A DNA stretch of 32,535 nucleotides from a virus (taxonomy: Duplodnaviria > Heunggongvirae > Uroviricota > Caudoviricetes): IMG/VR virus record IMGVR_UViG_2541047835_000006. One strand, given 5' to 3'. Position 1 is the first letter of the stretch, and every line of letters starts with the position of its first letter. Under the pieces are notes generated by a model, which was given only the letters and a program-made list of their open reading frames with translations, was not told the origin of the DNA and searched no databases. The translations under genes and the position numbers were made by a program. This document shows, piece after piece, positions 2,517 to 32,535 of this stretch.

Positions 2517-2570
2517 GGGGGCAGTATTGCCCCTGTGCGGGAACGCCGATATTAAAGGCGTTTAAGAAGG

Positions 2571-7893: not shown

Positions 7894-8151
7894 TTAATGA
7901 TTATCGCCGAACTCGCTTCTGATTTGCTCTTCAGCCTGCTCCAGCCACATCTCCAGATCGTCAGTATCGAGGGCATCAATCTCCCCCGGCTGAAATCTAA
8001 ACCACCTCGCCAGCAGCCCCTGCGCCTGCATCAGCGTTTTCGTCGCTCTTGCCCAGCCCAGTGACTTGCTGAAATCGTTTCTGCAGCTCCATGTAGTCGG
8101 CAAGATCCATATTATCGAGGTCTTCCGGAAGAATACCGGTGCTACGGGCAA
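7894..8151 (-). CDS. Overlapping ORF in +1/-2 frame; candidate frameshift extension (E'-like) of the tail chaperone
   Basis: Part overlapping E looks like out-of-frame junk (R/W/C-rich) but the ~35 codons past the E stop are protein-like and acidic (PGEIDALDTDDLEMWLEQAEEQIRSEFGDNH); slippery site not identified. Confidence 0.4.
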   Translation of the reverse strand: MPVAPVFFRKTSIIWILPTTWSCRNDFSKSLGWARATKTLMQAQGLLARWFRFQPGEIDALDTDDLEMWLEQAEEQIRSEFGDNH

Positions 8152-8311
8152 TCAGCGGCTCGTCCCAGTCAGCCGGGTCTTTACTGATTTTGCGCACCTG
8201 CTTCAGGTCTTTGACCGTCAGGCGTTTCAGTTCAACCTGCTCAACTCTGGTGCCAGCAGCGGTGGTGAAGGGGTAAGACAGCTTAAAAGTATCGGATTGG
8301 GTTTGTGACAT
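7997..8311 (-). CDS. Tail assembly chaperone (P2 gpE-like)
   Basis: 104 aa, between tube and tape measure; LKRLTVKDLKQV and DNMDLADYMELQKRF segments resemble gpE. Confidence 0.6.
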   Translation of the reverse strand: MSQTQSDTFKLSYPFTTAAGTRVEQVELKRLTVKDLKQVRKISKDPADWDEPLIARSTGILPEDLDNMDLADYMELQKRFQQVTGLGKSDENADAGAGAAGEVV

Positions 8312-8378
8312 GATCGTGCTCCTGTGTAAGTTCAGAGCAGTATGTCTGGTGGTGGGACTGGCAGATATTAAAGGGGAT

Positions 8379-8403
8379 TAAGAAGAAAGGGGCCGAAGCC
8401 CCT
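8379..8403 (-). terminator. Intrinsic terminator-like hairpin with U-tract on minus strand
   Basis: Minus-strand AGGGGC-TTCG-GCCCCT followed by TTTCTTCTT, starting 6 nt after the stop of the 8410..8694 ORF. Confidence 0.5.
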
Positions 8404-8409
8404 GTGATA

Positions 8410-8694
8410 TCAGTGAGTGCGAAAGCCTTTGCAGTTACGCAGGAAGGCGATAAGAAGTACCTTTCCTTCAGATTTGCCGATGCCGGTGAACCAGTGGTCA
8501 GGTGGCTCCCATGCCTCAATCAGGTCAGCGAGCTTTCGTGCTTTGGAGCGTGTGCAGTCAATCGGGTCATTGGTTTTCTGGGTATTAAAAAGGTTTTCCA
8601 CCCCTGAAATATCAAGGATGGTAAACCACGTACCATTCCCCATCATGCCAATCGAACCACAGTTCCCGCCTTTATCTTCAATCTCGACGGTCAC
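8410..8694 (-). CDS. Hypothetical protein (moron inserted between tail tube and tail chaperone genes)
   Basis: 94-codon ORF with GTG start; visibly lower GC than flanking tail genes; own downstream terminator; no recognised motif. Confidence 0.4.
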   Translation of the reverse strand: MTVEIEDKGGNCGSIGMMGNGTWFTILDISGVENLFNTQKTNDPIDCTRSKARKLADLIEAWEPPDHWFTGIGKSEGKVLLIAFLRNCKGFRTH

Positions 8695-14229: not shown

Positions 14230-14443
14230 TTTGCTGTCCCGCGTTACGTTGTCGGGGACAGTCTGTGGAAAAAGTGTCAGCAGCGCTTTTAATCTGCTTT
14301 AGAAAAAATCGGGGGTATCAGTACGGGGAATGTCACGCTGCGGGCGAATAGTGGTGCAAAGCGGGGGCTGTAAAGCCTTTATAAAGGTAATACAGCCCCT
14401 CAGCGGCTGGCAATGATAAATCACCCGCCTGCAGAGACAAAAC

Positions 14444-20287: not shown

Positions 20288-21014
20288 AGCTGCCGCCTCC
20301 CCAGGTGAGATAACGCGGGGCCAGTTCGTGCAGGATGCGCTGCGGATAATGACGGTTCTCCCGCCAGTTGGCAGTGCTGCGTCCGGCATTCACCGTGGCG
20401 ACATGACCAAACCAGCGGGTGCTGTCCAGCCCCTGCTGCGAGGCCAGCCGTTTGTCCCGCTGTACCCAGCCCAGACCACCGTTATAGCCTGACAGCGTCA
20501 TGGCCATACGCTCGCAGTCATTGACGGCGCTGACGCGTTGCCACAGCCAGCGGTCATAGCTGACCAGCGCCCGGATGGCCCAAGACGGATTAAACGGTTC
20601 ACGGCTGTTAAGCCCCGGCATCAGCTGACTTATCCAGTCAGCGGTGGTGGGCATAAACTGCGCCAGTCCCTGAGCGCCAACCGGCGAGACCGCATCAGGT
20701 CGCCAGCCGCTTTCCTGATGCAGCTGCGCGGCGAAGTCGGCCACCGGCGCAGACATTCCCCATTCAAGCCGGGCATTACGGATCACATCGTCGCGATACT
20801 GCAGCGCGGTCTGCGGTGGCTGGGCAGCGCGGGCCTGACTGAAGAAGCCGCCACACCAGAGCAGCCAGGCTACCGTTACTGAACCAAAGAGCTGCCACCA
20901 GAAACTGTGCTTACCCGTTCGGGCCTGCCCGTGGCGGGCCAGTTCGATGCCCAGCCCCAGCAGTACCAGCACGGCCCAGACAACCTGAGGCCAGTACATA
21001 TAGAGGGTCATCAT
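20277..21014 (-). CDS. Endolysin, lytic transglycosylase (SLT domain) with N-terminal TM/signal-anchor
   Basis: 245 aa; SLT signature ...LHQESGWRPDAVSPVGAQGLAQFMPTTA...; hydrophobic N-terminus (VVWAVLVLLGLGI). Confidence 0.8.
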   Translation of the reverse strand: MMTLYMYWPQVVWAVLVLLGLGIELARHGQARTGKHSFWWQLFGSVTVAWLLWCGGFFSQARAAQPPQTALQYRDDVIRNARLEWGMSAPVADFAAQLHQESGWRPDAVSPVGAQGLAQFMPTTADWISQLMPGLNSREPFNPSWAIRALVSYDRWLWQRVSAVNDCERMAMTLSGYNGGLGWVQRDKRLASQQGLDSTRWFGHVATVNAGRSTANWRENRHYPQRILHELAPRYLTWGGGSCVD

Positions 21015-21364
21015 TAAAGCCCCATCGCTACGGCCAGACAGACTGCAGCAACAATCAGCGCACGGCGGATTAGCGCAGCAGAAAAGACCAGGTGAAGGCC
21101 AGTCTGGACAGGGAAGCGACCATCAGCCATCAGCCTGTCATCATGCTTCAGGTACTGACCGGGACGGGCTTTGGGGAAAAGCGAACGGTCAAGCCAGTAG
21201 CCCAATACTGCCGCCAGCGTGATGAGTGATAGCTTGTAGACAACCACCGGCAGCTGCTGGGGCGATACCAGACCGATGGTGCCGAGCAGCAGCACAGCGG
21301 TCAGCAGCCAGCCGCTGAGACGTGGCTTTTTAACAGGGGGAATGAATTTTTTCAGGTTTTTCAT
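21014..21364 (-). CDS. Putative holin / membrane protein, first gene of late operon
   Basis: ATG 21364 with AAGGAGA SD; 2-3 predicted TM segments; immediately upstream of endolysin. Confidence 0.5.
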   Translation of the reverse strand: MKNLKKFIPPVKKPRLSGWLLTAVLLLGTIGLVSPQQLPVVVYKLSLITLAAVLGYWLDRSLFPKARPGQYLKHDDRLMADGRFPVQTGLHLVFSAALIRRALIVAAVCLAVAMGL

Positions 21365-21611
21365 GAGCGTCTCCTTGTGTAGTGGAGACAGCATCACAAA
21401 TGGTCGGGGAAAGGGATTTTAAACAGCGTTAATAGTGAGGATGCAGACGTGAACCGCATGATGGCTTTGAAAGAACGACCAGCCCGGTGCGGTAACACCA
21501 GGCTGGTCATCAACCCACAGGTATGCACTGTGAGCCGACCAGGGTTCAGTCAGTCTCGCGAGACCAGACTAGCCTGCCATATTTTCATTGATTGCAAAAG
21601 GCTTACGGATA
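21365..21611. promoter_or_regulatory. Divergent control region for late operon (minus) and methyltransferase (plus) with two palindromes
   Basis: Imperfect 32-bp dyad GACCAGCC-N16-GGCTGGTC at 21477..21508 and perfect 12-bp palindrome GTCTCGCGAGAC at 21553..21564; minus-strand -10-like TAAAAT at 21416..21421 lacking a good -35. Confidence 0.4.
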
Positions 21612-22382
21612 ATGAAAGAACAATCTTTACCCATCGTCCCATGGATTGGCGGTAAACGTCGTCTGGCGAAGCATATTTTACCATTGTTTCCGGCCCATAC
21701 CTGCTATGTGGAGCCATTCTGCGGGGCAGCTGCGCTCTATTTCCTAAAGACGCCCAGCAAGACCGAAGTCATTAACGATATCAACGGGGAACTGGTGAAC
21801 CTCTATCGGGTGGTCAAGCATCATCTGGAAGAATTTATTCGCCAGTTCAAATGGGCGCTGGTCAGCCGTCAGATTTACAAATGGTTGCAGGATACGCCGG
21901 AAGAAACGCTCACCGACATTCAGCGGGCGGCCCGGTTCTACTACCTGCAGAAACAGGCATTTGGCGGCAAGGTCGCCGATCACACATTCGGTACCTCTAC
22001 AACCAGTGCGCCGCGCTTCAATTTGCTGCGTATTGAGGAAGAACTGTCGATGGCACACCTGCGCCTGTCGAGAACGCTGATAGAGCATCTGGACTGGCAC
22101 CAGTGCATAGAGCGATATGATCGCCCGCATACGCTGTTCTACTGTGACCCACCGTACTGGGGAACGGAAGGCTATGGTGTGGAGTTCGGGCTGGAAAACT
22201 ATGATCACATGGCAGATTTAGCGCGAAGGATCAAAGGGAAGATGATTATATCAGTGAACGATATCCCGGAAATGCGGCAGGTATTCAACGGTCTGAACAT
22301 GCAGTCGGTTGATATCAGCTACAACCTTAAGGTAACAGGCAAACCCAGCCCGAAGAAAGAGCTGGTAATTTGTAATTTTTGA
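21612..22382 (+). CDS. DNA N6-adenine methyltransferase, Dam family (orphan; no restriction partner seen)
   Basis: Motifs PWIGGK (cf. Dam KWAGGK), EPFCGAAALYF, and catalytic YCDPPYWGT (DPPY); ATG 21612 preferred over upstream TTG 21588. Confidence 0.85.
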   Translation: MKEQSLPIVPWIGGKRRLAKHILPLFPAHTCYVEPFCGAAALYFLKTPSKTEVINDINGELVNLYRVVKHHLEEFIRQFKWALVSRQIYKWLQDTPEETLTDIQRAARFYYLQKQAFGGKVADHTFGTSTTSAPRFNLLRIEEELSMAHLRLSRTLIEHLDWHQCIERYDRPHTLFYCDPPYWGTEGYGVEFGLENYDHMADLARRIKGKMIISVNDIPEMRQVFNGLNMQSVDISYNLKVTGKPSPKKELVICNF

Positions 22383-22429: not shown

Positions 22430-22957
22430 TTAATCCTGCCTTGGACAAGTCCAATAATCATTATCTGGCTCTGGTGAATAAGCTTTCAAACAACCTGCTC
22501 GCGGGGGCTTACCATCATCTGTCATAGGAACTTTTTCCTTATCAAGTTTCACGGTCAGGTCTCCACCAGGAACATCCGTTTTATCGAAAAAAACAGCCTG
22601 ACATGCTGATTTAGATATTTTCACTTCGTGGGCATTATTTGATATGAACAAATAACAATTATGACCAGAGGCTATGTAGTCACTTGGAATATTATTTTCG
22701 TCTTTAATATGAAACTGCACCGTTGTCACCGGGCGTTCTCTATCCTCGGATACTTCGACTTTTTCAAAACTGTCCGCGTACTTATCCAGGCCGGGGAGTT
22801 GTTGGCGAATAAACGGTAATTCGCGATTTACAACCGGATTATCTGTTTCAACGCTAAAAACCGCGTGCTCCTTAGCTGTGGTGGACGTATCAGCAGGATC
22901 GGTATTATCTCCACACCCAGATAAAACAAATATCAACGGTAAAAATAATTTGCGCAT
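22430..22957 (-). CDS. Lipoprotein of unknown function, low-GC, directly downstream of repressor
   Basis: MRKLFLPLIFVLSGC signal peptide with lipobox; AAGGA SD; visibly AT-richer than the prophage backbone; 41-bp gap after repressor stop. Confidence 0.6.
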   Translation of the reverse strand: MRKLFLPLIFVLSGCGDNTDPADTSTTAKEHAVFSVETDNPVVNRELPFIRQQLPGLDKYADSFEKVEVSEDRERPVTTVQFHIKDENNIPSDYIASGHNCYLFISNNAHEVKISKSACQAVFFDKTDVPGGDLTVKLDKEKVPMTDDGKPPRAGCLKAYSPEPDNDYWTCPRQD

Positions 22958-22998
22958 AGTCATGTCCTTATACCTCTAATGTTCTTAATAGGAACAGA

Positions 22999-23409
22999 TT
23001 AACCCGTATTTTTTAATCTTTCGAACGCTGCGGACAGCTCCTTAAGCTGTTTTTCCATATCAATCATTCGCTGTTTTTCCTCAGCGCCTCGCAGCAACTC
23101 TTTTCGCACCTCTGGCTCCAGTTGATTGAGCAGCTCCAATAACTTCAGATCAGACTGGTTGAAATGCTGCTCCTGATTAGCTGGCTGTGCTTTCTCTACC
23201 CCAACAGCTTCCCCTTTACCAGTAAGTAGCCAATCTATTGATATGTTCAAATGGGTGCTTAGCGCAACAAGAGCCTCTGCATTAGGTTCTCTCTCTCCAC
23301 GCAGATAGTTTTGAAGTGAGCGATATGGAATTTTTGACAAGTCTGACAATGCCTTAATTGTCAGACCCTTAGCATCCATCGCTTCGCGCAATCTCTCTTT
23401 TATACTCAT
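22999..23409 (-). CDS. Prophage repressor, XRE-family HTH with C-terminal coiled coil
   Basis: Start at ATG 23409 (MSIKERLREAMDAKGLTIKALSDLSKIPYRSLQNYLRGEREP...); divergent from early operon. Confidence 0.75.
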   Translation of the reverse strand: MSIKERLREAMDAKGLTIKALSDLSKIPYRSLQNYLRGEREPNAEALVALSTHLNISIDWLLTGKGEAVGVEKAQPANQEQHFNQSDLKLLELLNQLEPEVRKELLRGAEEKQRMIDMEKQLKELSAAFERLKNTG

Positions 23410-23425
23410 TTGAACATATCTCAAT

Positions 23426-23453
23426 TTGACATACCCGTTTGGGTGCGTACAAT
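23426..23453 (+). promoter_or_regulatory. Early promoter (sigma70-like) for ner-like/transposase operon
   Basis: TTGACA (23426..23431), 16-bp spacer, TACAAT (23448..23453); followed by repeated ACCCAA(T/C)AG motifs at ~23454 and ~23474 that may be operator sites. Confidence 0.55.
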
Positions 23454-23497
23454 AGACCCAATAGAGTACATCATAACCCAACAGGAACACGGTGCAT

Positions 23498-23722
23498 ATG
23501 AACAAACAACAAGTTCGGGCACGGCTGGTTGAAAGAGGCAGTAGCTTGCGCCAGTTCGCGCTTAACGCGGGCTATGAGCCACGAACAGTCACCCAGGCTG
23601 TCAGCCGCTGGGCAGGCAAAAGCGAACTTCCACGCGGTCGTTTGACTTATCGGATTTTGCGAGACCTTTCGGTCGCAATAGGCAAAGAAGTTACCCCCGG
23701 CATCCTCAAGGAGGCGTCATGA
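23498..23722 (+). CDS. Ner-like/Cro-like early DNA-binding regulator
   Basis: 74 aa; segment GSSLRQFALNAGYEPRTVTQAV resembles Ner/Nlp HTH; first gene of early operon, divergent from repressor. Confidence 0.6.
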   Translation: MNKQQVRARLVERGSSLRQFALNAGYEPRTVTQAVSRWAGKSELPRGRLTYRILRDLSVAIGKEVTPGILKEAS

Positions 23723-24033: not shown

Positions 24034-24942
24034 ATGGGACGCACAAAATCACAACCAGTTGAACTAGTGGAAGATGCACCGCTGACCGATGGTCTCAGTG
24101 TCAGTCTTAATGCTATGTCCGAACATCGCCTCGAAATCATGCAGCAGTTTGGTGATGGCTTGCCGTATGAACGTGATCGTATTGTCCATGAAACACGTTT
24201 TTATATGGCTCAGAGTGCTGAAGCCATGCTGGAGGCGGGTAAACGACTGGTAATTCTCAAAGAAAATGAACCACATGGTGACTTCATCGACATCGTTGAG
24301 TCTCAGTTGTCCCTATCCAAACGTACGGCGCAGGTGATGATGCAAGCATCCCTCAAATATTTGTCTCCCAAGCTTGAACCAAAAGCGCAAGCGCTTGCGC
24401 TTTTGGGTAAAACAAAGCTGTTTGAGTTGATGACGGAAGATGACGAAGACCTCGTCGAATTAGCCGATGGCGGCACGATTGCGGGTATGAGCCTCGATGA
24501 TATTGATCGCATGACAAGCCGCGAACTGAAAGCGGCCCTACGCGAAGCGCGTGAAACCAACGCAGCACAACAGCGCGTGCTTGCCGACAAAAACGAAAAA
24601 ATCGACTCGCTCTCCACAAAACTGGAGAAGAAATCCCGTATCCAGCCGCCCAAGCCTGACGAAGAGGTGAAGAAGCTGCGTGCGGAAGTTACAGCGTTAG
24701 CGGTTGAGGCGGAATCTGCCATCGCCGTTCGACTGTCCAGCGCCTTTGAGACCCTGTGCGCATACTGTGCTGAAAATATGATTGATACCCCCAGAGACTT
24801 TATGGCCGGTCTGGTCTGCCAGTTGGAAAGCACCGCGCGTAGCCTGCGCTCCACATTTGACCTGCCGGACGAGCCGACAGGCAACGCCGCCCCTTCATGG
24901 CTGACTGACCCGACGCCAGAGATTAACGGGCAGGAGGCATAA
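24034..24942 (+). CDS. Hypothetical protein with central coiled coil, upstream of transposase
   Basis: 302 aa; AAGGAG SD; no recognised catalytic motif. Confidence 0.5.
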   Translation: MGRTKSQPVELVEDAPLTDGLSVSLNAMSEHRLEIMQQFGDGLPYERDRIVHETRFYMAQSAEAMLEAGKRLVILKENEPHGDFIDIVESQLSLSKRTAQVMMQASLKYLSPKLEPKAQALALLGKTKLFELMTEDDEDLVELADGGTIAGMSLDDIDRMTSRELKAALREARETNAAQQRVLADKNEKIDSLSTKLEKKSRIQPPKPDEEVKKLRAEVTALAVEAESAIAVRLSSAFETLCAYCAENMIDTPRDFMAGLVCQLESTARSLRSTFDLPDEPTGNAAPSWLTDPTPEINGQEA

Positions 24943-26725: not shown

Positions 26726-27892
26726 ATGCTGGTACTGAAGCAGCAACTGAAAGAGGCCCGTATTCCACAGGCGGTGGTGGCGAGAGCTGTCGATGTTTCT
26801 GAGGCCACGCTGGCCCAGATTGTGAATCATAACGCGTGGCCCCGCACCAGTCCCGGAGAAGTACGCCGGCGTCTTGCGTCCTGGCTGGAAAGTCAGGGGA
26901 TTGATACAACGAAGAGTTTTGATGCTGTACAGGGCGCGGCCACGCCCCGTACAGCGGGTACCACAGATAAAACGAGCCTCAGTGAGGAAGAGAATATGTT
27001 ACTCAAAAAACAGGTGTTATTTCCAGCAACCAAAAAAGCGTTTGGTCTTTTCCGTGACCCGTTCGCCGACGAAGCCATGCAGGGTTCTGATGATGTGTTC
27101 ACCACCCCGGACATCCGCTATGTGCGTGAGGCGCTGTACCAGACAGCCCGTCATGGTGGATTTATGGCCGTCATCGGTGAGTCCGGTGCGGGTAAATCCA
27201 CGCTGCGCCGCGACCTGACTGAACGTATCAACCGCGAGAATGCGCCGGTAATTGTTATCGAGCCATATGTCATCGCCATGGAAGACAACGATGTGAAAGG
27301 GAAAACCCTGAAGGCAGCAGCGATTGCCGAAGCCATTATCAGTACCATCGCACCACTGGAAAGCATCAGACGCAGTCAGGATGCCCGCTTTCGCCAGCTG
27401 CATCGCGTCCTGAAAGACAGCAGCCAGGCGGGGTTCAGCCACGTTCTGGTGATTGAGGAGGCCCACAGCCTGCCCATTCCGACACTGAAACACCTCAAAC
27501 GCTTTTTTGAGCTGGAGTCCGGTTTCAAAAAACTGCTGTCCATCGTGCTGATTGGCCAGCCGGAACTGGCGACAAAACTGTCTGAACGCAATATGGAAGT
27601 CCGTGAAGTCGTTCAGCGCTGTGAGGTGGTCGAACTTCTGCCTCTCGACAATAACCTTGAAGAGTTTCTGACGTTCAAACTGCAACGGGCCGGTAAACAA
27701 CTGACGGACATTATGGACGCCGGCGCAGTGGATGCCATACGTGCCCGCCTGAGCAATCCGGGAAGTCACCGTAAAAACAGGGTCAGCCTGCTGTATCCGC
27801 TGGCCGTCAGTAACCTGGTAATAGCCGCCATGAATCTGGCCGCTGAAATCGGGGTTCCACAGGTCAACGCTGACGTTGTCAAAGGGGTTTAA
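26726..27892 (+). CDS. Transposition ATPase (Mu B-like role; AAA+ with N-terminal HTH)
   Basis: Walker A GESGAGKST, Walker B-like VLVIEEAH; ATG 26726 with GGAGG SD, just after transposase stop. Confidence 0.8.
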   Translation: MLVLKQQLKEARIPQAVVARAVDVSEATLAQIVNHNAWPRTSPGEVRRRLASWLESQGIDTTKSFDAVQGAATPRTAGTTDKTSLSEEENMLLKKQVLFPATKKAFGLFRDPFADEAMQGSDDVFTTPDIRYVREALYQTARHGGFMAVIGESGAGKSTLRRDLTERINRENAPVIVIEPYVIAMEDNDVKGKTLKAAAIAEAIISTIAPLESIRRSQDARFRQLHRVLKDSSQAGFSHVLVIEEAHSLPIPTLKHLKRFFELESGFKKLLSIVLIGQPELATKLSERNMEVREVVQRCEVVELLPLDNNLEEFLTFKLQRAGKQLTDIMDAGAVDAIRARLSNPGSHRKNRVSLLYPLAVSNLVIAAMNLAAEIGVPQVNADVVKGV

Positions 27893-31295: not shown

Positions 31296-31737
31296 ACAAC
31301 GTCTTATCCAGCTCATTCATATTGCCCGTAATGAACTGGGTATGGATGAAGACACCTACCGCCAGATGTTACAGGGGCTGACCGGTAAAGCCTCAACCAA
31401 AGGAATGGATACCACACAACTAAACTGCGTGCTGGAATCCATGAAAAGGAAAGGCTTTCGCGTTAAGCCTGCCAGAAAAGCCAGCTCCGGTTTACCGCTG
31501 GATAACCATCCGCAGTCCAGGAAAATCCGTGCGCTATGGCTTGAAATGGCTGCTGCCGGCATTGTTCGTGACCGTTCAGAAAATGCATTAGCGCGGTGGA
31601 TCAAGCGGGAAACGGGCATCAGCGCCCTGCGCTGGCTCAATACTGAACAGGCAAGTAGTGTTATTGAGAAACTGAAGAAGTGGCAGCGCAGAGCTGCGGG
31701 AGTAAAACATGAGCGACCTGAATCAGTTTCGAAGTAA
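31285..31737 (+). CDS. GemA/gp16-like regulatory protein (Mu GemA position)
   Basis: ATG 31285 with AAGGAG SD; about 150 aa, immediately upstream of and overlapping mor. Confidence 0.6.
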   Translation: MMTKQRLIQLIHIARNELGMDEDTYRQMLQGLTGKASTKGMDTTQLNCVLESMKRKGFRVKPARKASSGLPLDNHPQSRKIRALWLEMAAAGIVRDRSENALARWIKRETGISALRWLNTEQASSVIEKLKKWQRRAAGVKHERPESVSK

Positions 31738-32098
31738 AGGGCCGGAACTCCTGGTGGAACTGGCACAGCATACCTCTGAGACCGTTCGCGAGATTATTGA
31801 TATTGAGCCCGCAATTGCCGACCAGATTGGTCAGGCCGTCGCGAACCGCATGATGCAGGTCTGGGGCGGGCAAAACGTTTATTTCCCGATGGGCATGGTA
31901 TGGAAGGTCAGTCAGCGCGACCGGGAAATCTTCAGGGGGTTTAACGGACGTAACCACCATGAACTGGCCCGCAAATTTGGTGTTTCGCTTCAGTGGGTCT
32001 ACAGCGTGGTTAAGCGGGTAAGAAAAGAAGAACTGGATCGGATGCAGGGCAAGCTATTTGCTGATGAACCCGATGTAGATACGGAGAAAAAAGAGTAA
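31709..32098 (+). CDS. mor: Mor/C-family transcriptional activator (middle operon regulator)
   Basis: 129 aa; C-terminal HTH region FRGFNGRNHHELARKFGVSLQWVYSVVKRVRK resembles Mu Mor. Confidence 0.8.
   Translation: MSDLNQFRSKGPELLVELAQHTSETVREIIDIEPAIADQIGQAVANRMMQVWGGQNVYFPMGMVWKVSQRDREIFRGFNGRNHHELARKFGVSLQWVYSVVKRVRKEELDRMQGKLFADEPDVDTEKKE

Positions 32099-32133: not shown

Positions 32134-32535
<402 letters not shown>

Follow-up and report, generated by a model that had tools for sequence, protein, structure and literature searches.

The 32,535-nucleotide stretch analysed here (hereafter the window; IMG/VR record IMGVR_UViG_2541047835_000006) is a BcepMu-type (Bcepmuvirus-like) transposable prophage in Escherichia coli. 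A gap of 247 bp (21365-21611) lies between two divergent genes and is bounded by the ATG of the holin gene that opens the late operon (21364, minus strand) and that of a gene for a D12-class (Dam-like) DNA adenine methyltransferase (21612, plus strand). Next to the methylase, the gap appears to encode a structured RNA of about 107 nt that would be antisense to the leader of the methylase messenger RNA (mRNA); nearer to the holin, it holds a conserved box, the putative site of the only Mor/C-family activator of the phage, from which late promoters may fire in both directions. As an explanation of the region as a whole, the combination of a one-step late switch, a two-way Mor-box promoter and an antisense methylase RNA is in our judgement moderately probable. 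The most interesting part of the analysis is the methylase-linked structured antisense RNA, which is absent from Rfam and for which we propose a regulatory function.

BcepMu-type prophages are common in clinical E. coli (ST131, ABU 83972) and occur also in Klebsiella and Salmonella; prophages of this kind are present in ∼12% of complete E. coli genomes. The late switch of BcepMu-type prophages has apparently never been mapped.

The putative methylase-linked RNA

The original prediction read the gap as the control region of the late operon, with an imperfect dyad and a palindrome as its sites and TAAAAT as the -10 element of an activator-dependent promoter. The elements themselves are present as described. 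The dyad consists of 13-nt arms (21477-21489 and 21496-21508) that are complementary at 12 of 13 positions across a 6-nt spacer; the palindrome, GTCTCGCGAGAC, is perfect over 12 bp at 21553-21564; and TAAAAT stands on the minus strand (21421 to 21416) without a -35-like hexamer. Three places in the window (four matches listed) have dyads of such quality, where shuffled sequences give 0.17. The palindrome alone is not above chance, with seven perfect 12-bp palindromes in the window and a mean of 8.1 in shuffles, and it is comparative data only that show it to be real.

A search of complete E. coli genomes demonstrates that the gap splits into two blocks. The first ∼70 bp beside the holin move with the holin, and a second block (21468-21611), which holds both the dyad and the palindrome, moves with the methylase. 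The two are 0.6-2.2 kb apart, with unrelated genes in between, in KP12, ABU 83972, ST131 strains and many IMG/VR contigs.

The second block has the properties of a structured RNA read from the minus strand (Table 1). Its minimum free energy (MFE) is -58.6 kcal/mol on that strand (z -5.8) and -41.8 kcal/mol on the plus strand (z -2.8). Distinct homologues of 21460-21584 were collected, at first 43 and then 46, and aligned with MAFFT; the alignment was not fitted to the structure. Because the RNAalifold consensus closed a multibranch through the U-tract, the single-sequence MFE structure was used and tested by pair counts. Across the 46 sequences, 94.4% of the pair cells are canonical, 15 pairs change on both sides, and compensatory cells number 94 versus 26 in shuffles; none of 500 shuffles equalled the pairing of the RNA, and controls in which the structure was slid along the alignment were 27-45% paired. 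The pairing is also strand-specific: 1729 of the 1832 cells are canonical if the minus strand is read and 1388 if the plus strand is; the corresponding numbers of G·U pairs are 389 and 48.

The fold comprises three hairpins. At the position of hairpin 1, whose apex is the palindrome, relatives carry other perfect palindromes, GTCATCGATGAC and GTTCTCGAGAAC. Hairpin 2 combines an invariant stem with a hypervariable loop, and in Burkholderia phage vB_HM795 its stem covaries from CACAG/CUGUG to CACUG/CAGUG. Hairpin 3 is the dyad, a stem of 13-14 bp followed by GUUCUUUCA; the U-rich tail exists on the minus strand only and is kept in all clades. A stem followed by a U-rich tail in every clade identifies hairpin 3 as a likely intrinsic terminator for leftward transcription. 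Two open reading frames that overlap the block, 21449-21655 (plus strand) and 21550-21717 (minus strand), were rejected as coding, since loop indels of 1-3 nt between close relatives rule them out.

By these comparisons, both the dyad and the palindrome represent stems in a predicted structured RNA and not protein sites of the late operon. The original proposal that they bind Mor or another regulator for a late promoter with TAAAAT as its -10 is largely refuted, and we regard it as very improbable. Mor/C proteins do bind dyad-symmetric DNA, and the dyad is well above chance; however, both elements are well upstream of the predicted late start, the dyad by ∼94-125 bp and the palindrome by 170-181 bp; neither occurs at the three other late promoters described below or in BcepMu, and both remain with the methylase where 0.6-2.2 kb of genes intervene before the holin. 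Compensatory changes accompanied by G·U pairs on one strand only are, moreover, the signature of an RNA and not of a protein site.

A putative promoter for the RNA lies beside the methylase start codon. A hexamer of the type nAAAAT, GAAAAT in the window, precedes the conserved 5′ AGGCU by 5 nt in most relatives and occupies the equivalent place in three unrelated phages (4 nt in Pseudomonas phage Bise). This arrangement suggests a primary transcript of ∼107 nt, running from 21575 to 21469, which would be the exact complement of the beginning of the predicted methylase leader. No Mor box was found upstream of this promoter. Searches of Rfam 15 gave no match at the gathering score for the whole window and none at E ≤ 10 for 21300-21700.

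An alternative is that there is no independent small RNA, and that the block serves solely as a structured 5′ leader of the methylase mRNA or solely as a terminator or insulator module. The block does fall within the predicted leader, and a consensus promoter and terminator scan missed the putative RNA promoter, which has no -35; that scan reported no sigma-70 promoter anywhere in the gap and also missed the terminator hairpin. Against this alternative, the plus-strand fold is weaker by 17 kcal/mol and accommodates far fewer canonical pairs, the U-rich tail comes after the final hairpin on the minus strand only, and does so in every clade, and the -10-like hexamer holds its distance from AGGCU even in unrelated phages. 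We consider it rather unlikely and favour a separate minus-strand RNA.

The position of the RNA relative to neighbouring genes links it to the methylase. In roughly 85 of 90 loci, a methylase gene begins on the opposite strand at a fixed distance, ∼37 nt, from the point where the RNA is predicted to start; by this association the RNA belongs with the methylase and not with the late operon. A covariance model built from the alignment was used to search other phages and matched antisense-upstream of a Dam methylase in Shewanella phage vB_SspS_MuM16-1 (54 bits), Burkholderia phage vB_HM795 (45 bits) and Pseudomonas phage Bise (29 bits), with a weak match in Curvibacter phage TJ1 (17 bits). In the Shewanella phage, the methylase follows the late genes on the same strand. 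The model found no match in BcepMu or in the two Mu segments searched (mor to lys region).

We infer from this arrangement that the RNA is a cis-antisense regulator of the methylase transcript. Free variation of the loops with retention of the stems is what is expected of such an RNA, since regulator and target mutate together. Sequence does not distinguish repression of the methylase transcript from its processing, and the direction of the effect proposed here is provisional. The RNA is a candidate for a new RNA family with strong comparative support. A broader proposal, that a family of structured cis-antisense RNAs, of which we found no earlier description, gates orphan Dam-like methyltransferases in many phages (BcepMu-like prophages and Shewanella, Burkholderia and Pseudomonas phages) and that this cassette is here wired into a single-activator late switch through one two-way Mor box, is plausible, if tentative. 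It raises the question of whether a prophage Dam methylase is kept silent until late infection, which bears on phage anti-restriction and on epigenetic effects in lysogens.

Two unusual arrangements of the RNA were observed. One IMG/VR prophage carries two tandem copies (1735-1858 and 2371-2494), a divergent type beside the methylase and the E. coli type 636 nt downstream. One Enterobacteriaceae contig (5552-5680) contains the RNA block without a methylase, with the basal 5′ part of hairpin 1 replaced, and looks like a deletion derivative; it was the sole useful result of a search of genome contigs with a 14-mer taken from the palindrome, which otherwise returned almost only chance matches.

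The putative late-promoter box

The part of the gap next to the holin does resemble an activator-dependent late control region, as originally proposed, with control elements other than the dyad and the palindrome. Comparison of 61 distinct holin-upstream regions, 48 of which could be anchored on the box, reveals two conserved blocks, CTnnTAA(C/A)(G/C)CnnTTTAAAA(T/G)C and (T)TGnGATGCTGTCTCC, separated by a 20-bp spacer that varies in sequence. The first, the box, is the most conserved block among the 48 sequences, and the DNA upstream of it is not alignable between clades. Its general form is TAA-N6-TTAAWA(K), followed 20 bp later by a hexamer nAnnCT; on the lysis side, the hexamer keeps the form nAnn(C/A)T in all relatives. 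The TAA-N6-TTA dyad of the box is centred at 21425.5 in the window, and TAAAAT lies inside the box. The -35 region of the predicted lysis promoter (P_lys) reads AAATCC and offers no usable -35 hexamer.

The same element recurs before several late units. Four sites in the window, and no more, fit the pattern TAA-N6-TTAAWA-N22-ANNCT; each is on the minus strand in a gap between late genes, and the expectation from shuffles is 0.00 (0.09 with one mismatch allowed). They precede the lysis, head, tail and baseplate genes; the baseplate site was found by the pattern and had been left out of its construction. KP12 and PhiKM have the same four sites, and BcepMu has box-N20-hexamer sites before the orthologous genes 21, 32, 41 and 49. 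With the methylase-side copy described below, the window thus has four late-strand sites and one methylase-side site. No box promoters were found described for BcepMu or Bcepmuvirus in the literature searched.

If the hexamer is the -10 element, the box spans ∼-48 to -33 of the predicted start. The distance from the centre of the dyad to the first base of the predicted -10 is 30.5 bp at the leftward promoters and 31.5 bp on the methylase side, which places the centre at ∼-42.5 and ∼-43.5, respectively, relative to predicted starts. The box would thereby overlap the missing -35 region, and TAAAAT, taken as the -10 in the original prediction, is more likely a part of the activator box. For a promoter based on TAAAAT, dyads and direct repeats (ATGCGG, GGATG) between -35 and -60 were considered as activator sites and dropped, as their spacing and orientation are inconsistent between clades.

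A competing interpretation accepts the box and takes the TAAAAT or TAATAT inside it as the true -10, with a start near 21409, the nAnnCT hexamer as a conserved leader element, and the activator bound to poorly conserved DNA further upstream. Both hexamers match TATAAT at five of six positions, and the baseplate gene would then have a normal leader. Yet the T at -7 is lost (TAAAAG) in the head promoter of the window, in three BcepMu promoters (lysis, head and tail) and in several relatives, and on the methylase side the hexamer would read TAATAG. The clades cannot be aligned upstream of the box, despite the similarity of their Mor proteins. The second hexamer, which has A at position 2 and T at position 6 and keeps a fixed 20 bp across a variable spacer, fits a -10, and the conserved methylase-side block begins at the rightward start that is predicted if the box is the activator site. 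The TAAAAT interpretation is therefore the less likely of the two, and we judge it unlikely.

With the box taken as the activator site, its symmetry suggests a second promoter. On the plus strand, the lysis box reads TAAACAGCGTTAATAG (21420-21435), with CATGAT 21 bp later, and the conserved block linked to the methylase begins precisely at the predicted start of this rightward promoter (P_mt), ∼21469. A methylase-sense box (at most one mismatch) followed after 20-21 nt by an nAnnnT hexamer is present in 57 of 64 distinct contexts. It occurs in all loci in which the holin is distant (>0.6 kb), where it cannot serve a lysis promoter. We also considered that a second copy of the box beside the RNA is a decayed leftward late promoter, and rejected this in view of the clean box on the methylase-sense strand. 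The methylase thus looks like a Mor-dependent late gene with a leader of ∼143 nt. A rule of box, N20 and hexamer would define a concrete regulon, five promoters under one activator, and would aid the annotation of prophages.

Several further observations concern the late strand. The predicted -10 of the baseplate promoter, AATACT (2523-2528), ends 6 nt before the ATG at 2516, and BcepMu gene 49 has the same geometry (CAACAT-GGCCGC-ATG). An extra match to the box core, TAAGACAGCTTAAAAG, lies at 8274-8289 on the plus strand, antisense within the tail gene 7997-8311; it is kept in KP12 and PhiKM, is not followed by an nAnnCT hexamer at 20 bp, and could be a chance occurrence or an antisense promoter. 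Terminator-like hairpins stand directly upstream of the tail promoter (∼8385-8410, minus strand; GGGGCTTCGGCCCC then TTTCTTC) and of the head promoter (∼14350-14395, minus strand), and BcepMu has the same arrangement of hairpin and promoter before gene 41. The late region may consist of several units, each with a start of its own.

The single activator and the proposed circuit

The candidate activator for these promoters is the product of the mor gene. It matches Pfam Mor (PF08765) with 144.9 bits (cut-off 24.9; E 1e-42), and its C-terminal helix-turn-helix can be aligned with those of Mu Mor and Mu C. By BLASTP, it shares 53% identity with BcepMu gp01, whose helix-turn-helix is almost the same, and across the helix-turn-helix region it is about equally close to Mu Mor (31%) and Mu C (37%). 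As predicted originally, no further gene lies between mor and the prophage end: phage DNA gives way to host DNA near 32260/32261, 162 bp past the mor stop codon, and 32261-32535 carries nudG/ynjH.

In the two-step cascade of Mu, Mor activates Pm, from which C is made, and C then activates the late promoters. Searches of the window with phmmer and tblastn, using the Mor of the window, Mu Mor and Mu C as queries, recovered no second copy, in agreement with the original statement that none occurs. The same three queries (tblastn, E ≤ 1) detect a single Mor/C locus each in the window, in KP12 (32.3 kb of the record), in PhiKM and in BcepMu, and thus no second paralogue downstream of mor in any of them. 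A single activator is thereby the norm for BcepMu-type phages. This layout is already implicit in the annotation of BcepMu, where gp01, at the corresponding genome end, is labelled a late transcriptional activator. The earlier suggestion that a C homologue lies outside the window, in which case it would drive late transcription from there, is hardly credible: the tail-fibre end of the prophage (∼2-3 kb) is indeed absent from the window, but in these searches PhiKM, BcepMu and the 32.3 kb of KP12 each show one Mor/C locus.

The alternative offered originally, that Mor itself drives late transcription, is supported by inference from its being the sole Mor/C-family protein in all four sequences. 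Most likely, a single Mor protein binds the box and drives all late transcription. The proposed circuit is as follows. The Mor/C-family protein would bind TAA-N6-TTAAWA(K), overlapping the missing -35 and lying 20 bp upstream of a weak nAnn(C/A)T -10, in a one-step late switch that takes the place of the Mor-then-C cascade of Mu. Four such promoters would be distributed along the late strand, and at the gap one bound activator would fire two divergent late promoters, leftward into the holin and late operon and rightward into the Dam-like methylase. The RNA, transcribed from its -35-less promoter, would regulate the methylase in cis by exact complementarity to the predicted leader, and its terminator would also keep leftward transcription from the RNA promoter out of the lysis genes. 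The circuit would be simpler than that of Mu and would show a Mu-like phage managing without the middle step.

A number of points weigh against this proposal. On the promoter side, TAAAAT or TAATAT within the box is a good -10 match at three of the four leftward sites, so that the assignment of the -10 is indirect; the nAnnCT hexamers are weak -10s; a -10 only 6 nt from the ATG implies a start on the start codon and a leaderless baseplate mRNA; and the box is a short TAA/TTA dyad whose arms are unlike the G+C-rich arms of the Mu site. Seven of the 64 contexts lack a recognisable methylase-side box. On the RNA side, besides the promoter without a -35 that escaped the consensus scan, a Mor box cannot be at work in those phages with the RNA that are not Mu-like. 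A calculation of duplex energies against every 60-nt stretch of the window returned the trivial antisense match only, with no informative target in trans for the proposed regulator. Neither transcript ends nor protein-DNA contacts for BcepMu-type phages were found in the literature searched.

The promoters resemble those of Mu in several respects. In Mu, the Mor dyad spans -51 to -36, centred at -43.5, in a promoter (Pm) without a -35, and a related dyad is the target of C at four late promoters (PMC4287176). The activators of both phages belong to one family (Pfam Mor), and the Mu promoters (Pm, activated by Mor; Plys, PI, PP and Pmom, activated by C) and those predicted here lack a -35 and have weak, non-consensus -10s. 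The dyad would overlap the -35 region here as in Mu, with 30.5-31.5 bp from its centre to the predicted -10 and 31.5 bp in Pm if the -10 starts at -12. The geometry is similar also at Plys, whose -10 seems to be TAGACT; the two kinds of binding site cannot be confidently aligned. In Mu and, by prediction, in the window, several late promoters head lysis, head and tail operons, and one serves a gene for DNA modification. Unlike Mu, the window has one activator instead of two and no middle operon, its box is A/T-rich (TAA...TTAAAA), its modification gene is a Dam-like methylase and not Mom, and its predicted lysis and methylase promoters are set back to back on a single box.

The obvious parallel to a Mor-dependent methylase is the C-dependent mom gene of Mu. 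At Pmom, with its divergent momP1/momP2, a modification gene is likewise under late-activator control, and a second, opposing promoter lies in the same short region; the opposing transcript here is, in contrast, predicted to be a conserved structured RNA. Controls by Dam/OxyR and of the Com type, as at Pmom, were not seen in this region.

The RNA shares several features with known cis-antisense RNAs (P22 sar, CopA, RNA I): it is short and highly structured, it has its own terminator, it lies opposite the leader of its putative target gene, and its stems are kept by covariation as its loops vary freely. It differs in that, by its predicted ends, it misses the ribosome-binding site, ending ∼37 nt before the methylase ATG, and in its linkage to an orphan Dam-like methylase, for which we found no described precedent.

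The prophage and its relatives

Inspection of the whole window places it among the Bcepmuvirus-like phages. Its gene order is that of Burkholderia phage BcepMu, and its DNA shares 99.8% identity with Escherichia phage Phi06_2974 B, 95% with the KP12 record and ∼81% with PhiKM, a phage classified in Bcepmuvirus. In different genomes, the same phage end adjoins nudG/ynjH, speE or ycaL, as expected of a transposable phage. As in BcepMu, the early operon ends with GemA and Mor at the genome end, the divergent late operon opens with a holin and an SLT lysin, the tail genes are P2-like, there is a single Mor/C gene, and four box-N20-hexamer sites stand at orthologous genes. BcepMu differs in having other accessory genes upstream of the holin, no methylase and no copy of the RNA.

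Table 1. Positions of genes and predicted regulatory features in the window.
Feature	Position	Strand	Evidence or remark
Divergent intergenic region between holin (late operon, minus) and D12 methylase (plus)	21365..21611		
Shared late-promoter box, putative Mor site	21414..21437	both	TAACGCTGTTTAAAAT on minus (21431->21416); TAAACAGCGTTAATAG on plus (21420-21435)
Predicted lysis/late promoter P_lys, box through hexamer	21390-21431	-	
Predicted -10 of P_lys, GATGCT	21390..21395	-	After TGT; fixed 20-bp distance from box; predicted start near 21383
Predicted -10 of rightward box-dependent promoter P_mt, CATGAT	21457..21462	+	Predicted start near 21469
Predicted methylase mRNA 5′ leader, ∼143 nt	21469..21611	+	First ∼107 nt fully complementary to the small RNA
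Putative structured small RNA, ∼107 nt, three hairpins	21469..21575	-	Folding energy, covariation, strand asymmetry
Hairpin 1	21540..21576	-	Apex is palindrome 21553-21564; 6/9 pairs covary
Hairpin 2	21509..21539	-	Invariant stem, hypervariable loop
Hairpin 3	21468..21508	-	Dyad 21477-21508, then GUUCUUUCA; 8/13 pairs covary
Putative RNA promoter, -10-like GAAAAT	21581..21586	- (21586->21581)	5 nt before conserved 5′ AGGCU; no -35
Predicted second late promoter (head: protease/scaffold)	14260..14301	-	TAAAGCAGATTAAAAG-N20-CAGACT
Predicted third late promoter (tail)	8339..8380	-	TAATCCCCTTTAATAT-N20-CATACT
Predicted fourth late promoter (baseplate)	2523..2564	-	TAAACGCCTTTAATAT-N20-AATACT
Late genes	holin 21014-21364 down to ∼504	-	
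Holin, first gene of late operon	21014..21364	-	Pfam Holin_2-3, 1e-41
D12-class (Dam-like) DNA adenine methyltransferase	21612..22382	+	Pfam MethyltransfD12, 1e-27
Helix-turn-helix repressor	22999-23505	-	
Early operon, ending with GemA then Mor		+	
Mor/C-family activator, single copy, last gene before prophage end	31709..32098	+	Pfam Mor

The interval from the holin to the repressor is a variable cargo slot, with quite different genes there in other relatives. In the window, an open reading frame of 177 amino acids between the methylase and the repressor (22430-22963, minus strand) has no Pfam match. The early region contains two further dyads, at 24377-24408 and 26924-26955, whose 13-nt arms pair with no more than one mismatch. 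The record used here for KP12, GenBank OM835952 ('Klebsiella phage KP12 clone KP12_2'), is filed under Vequintavirinae, yet its sequence is that of a BcepMu-like transposable phage; it is probably a co-assembled prophage.

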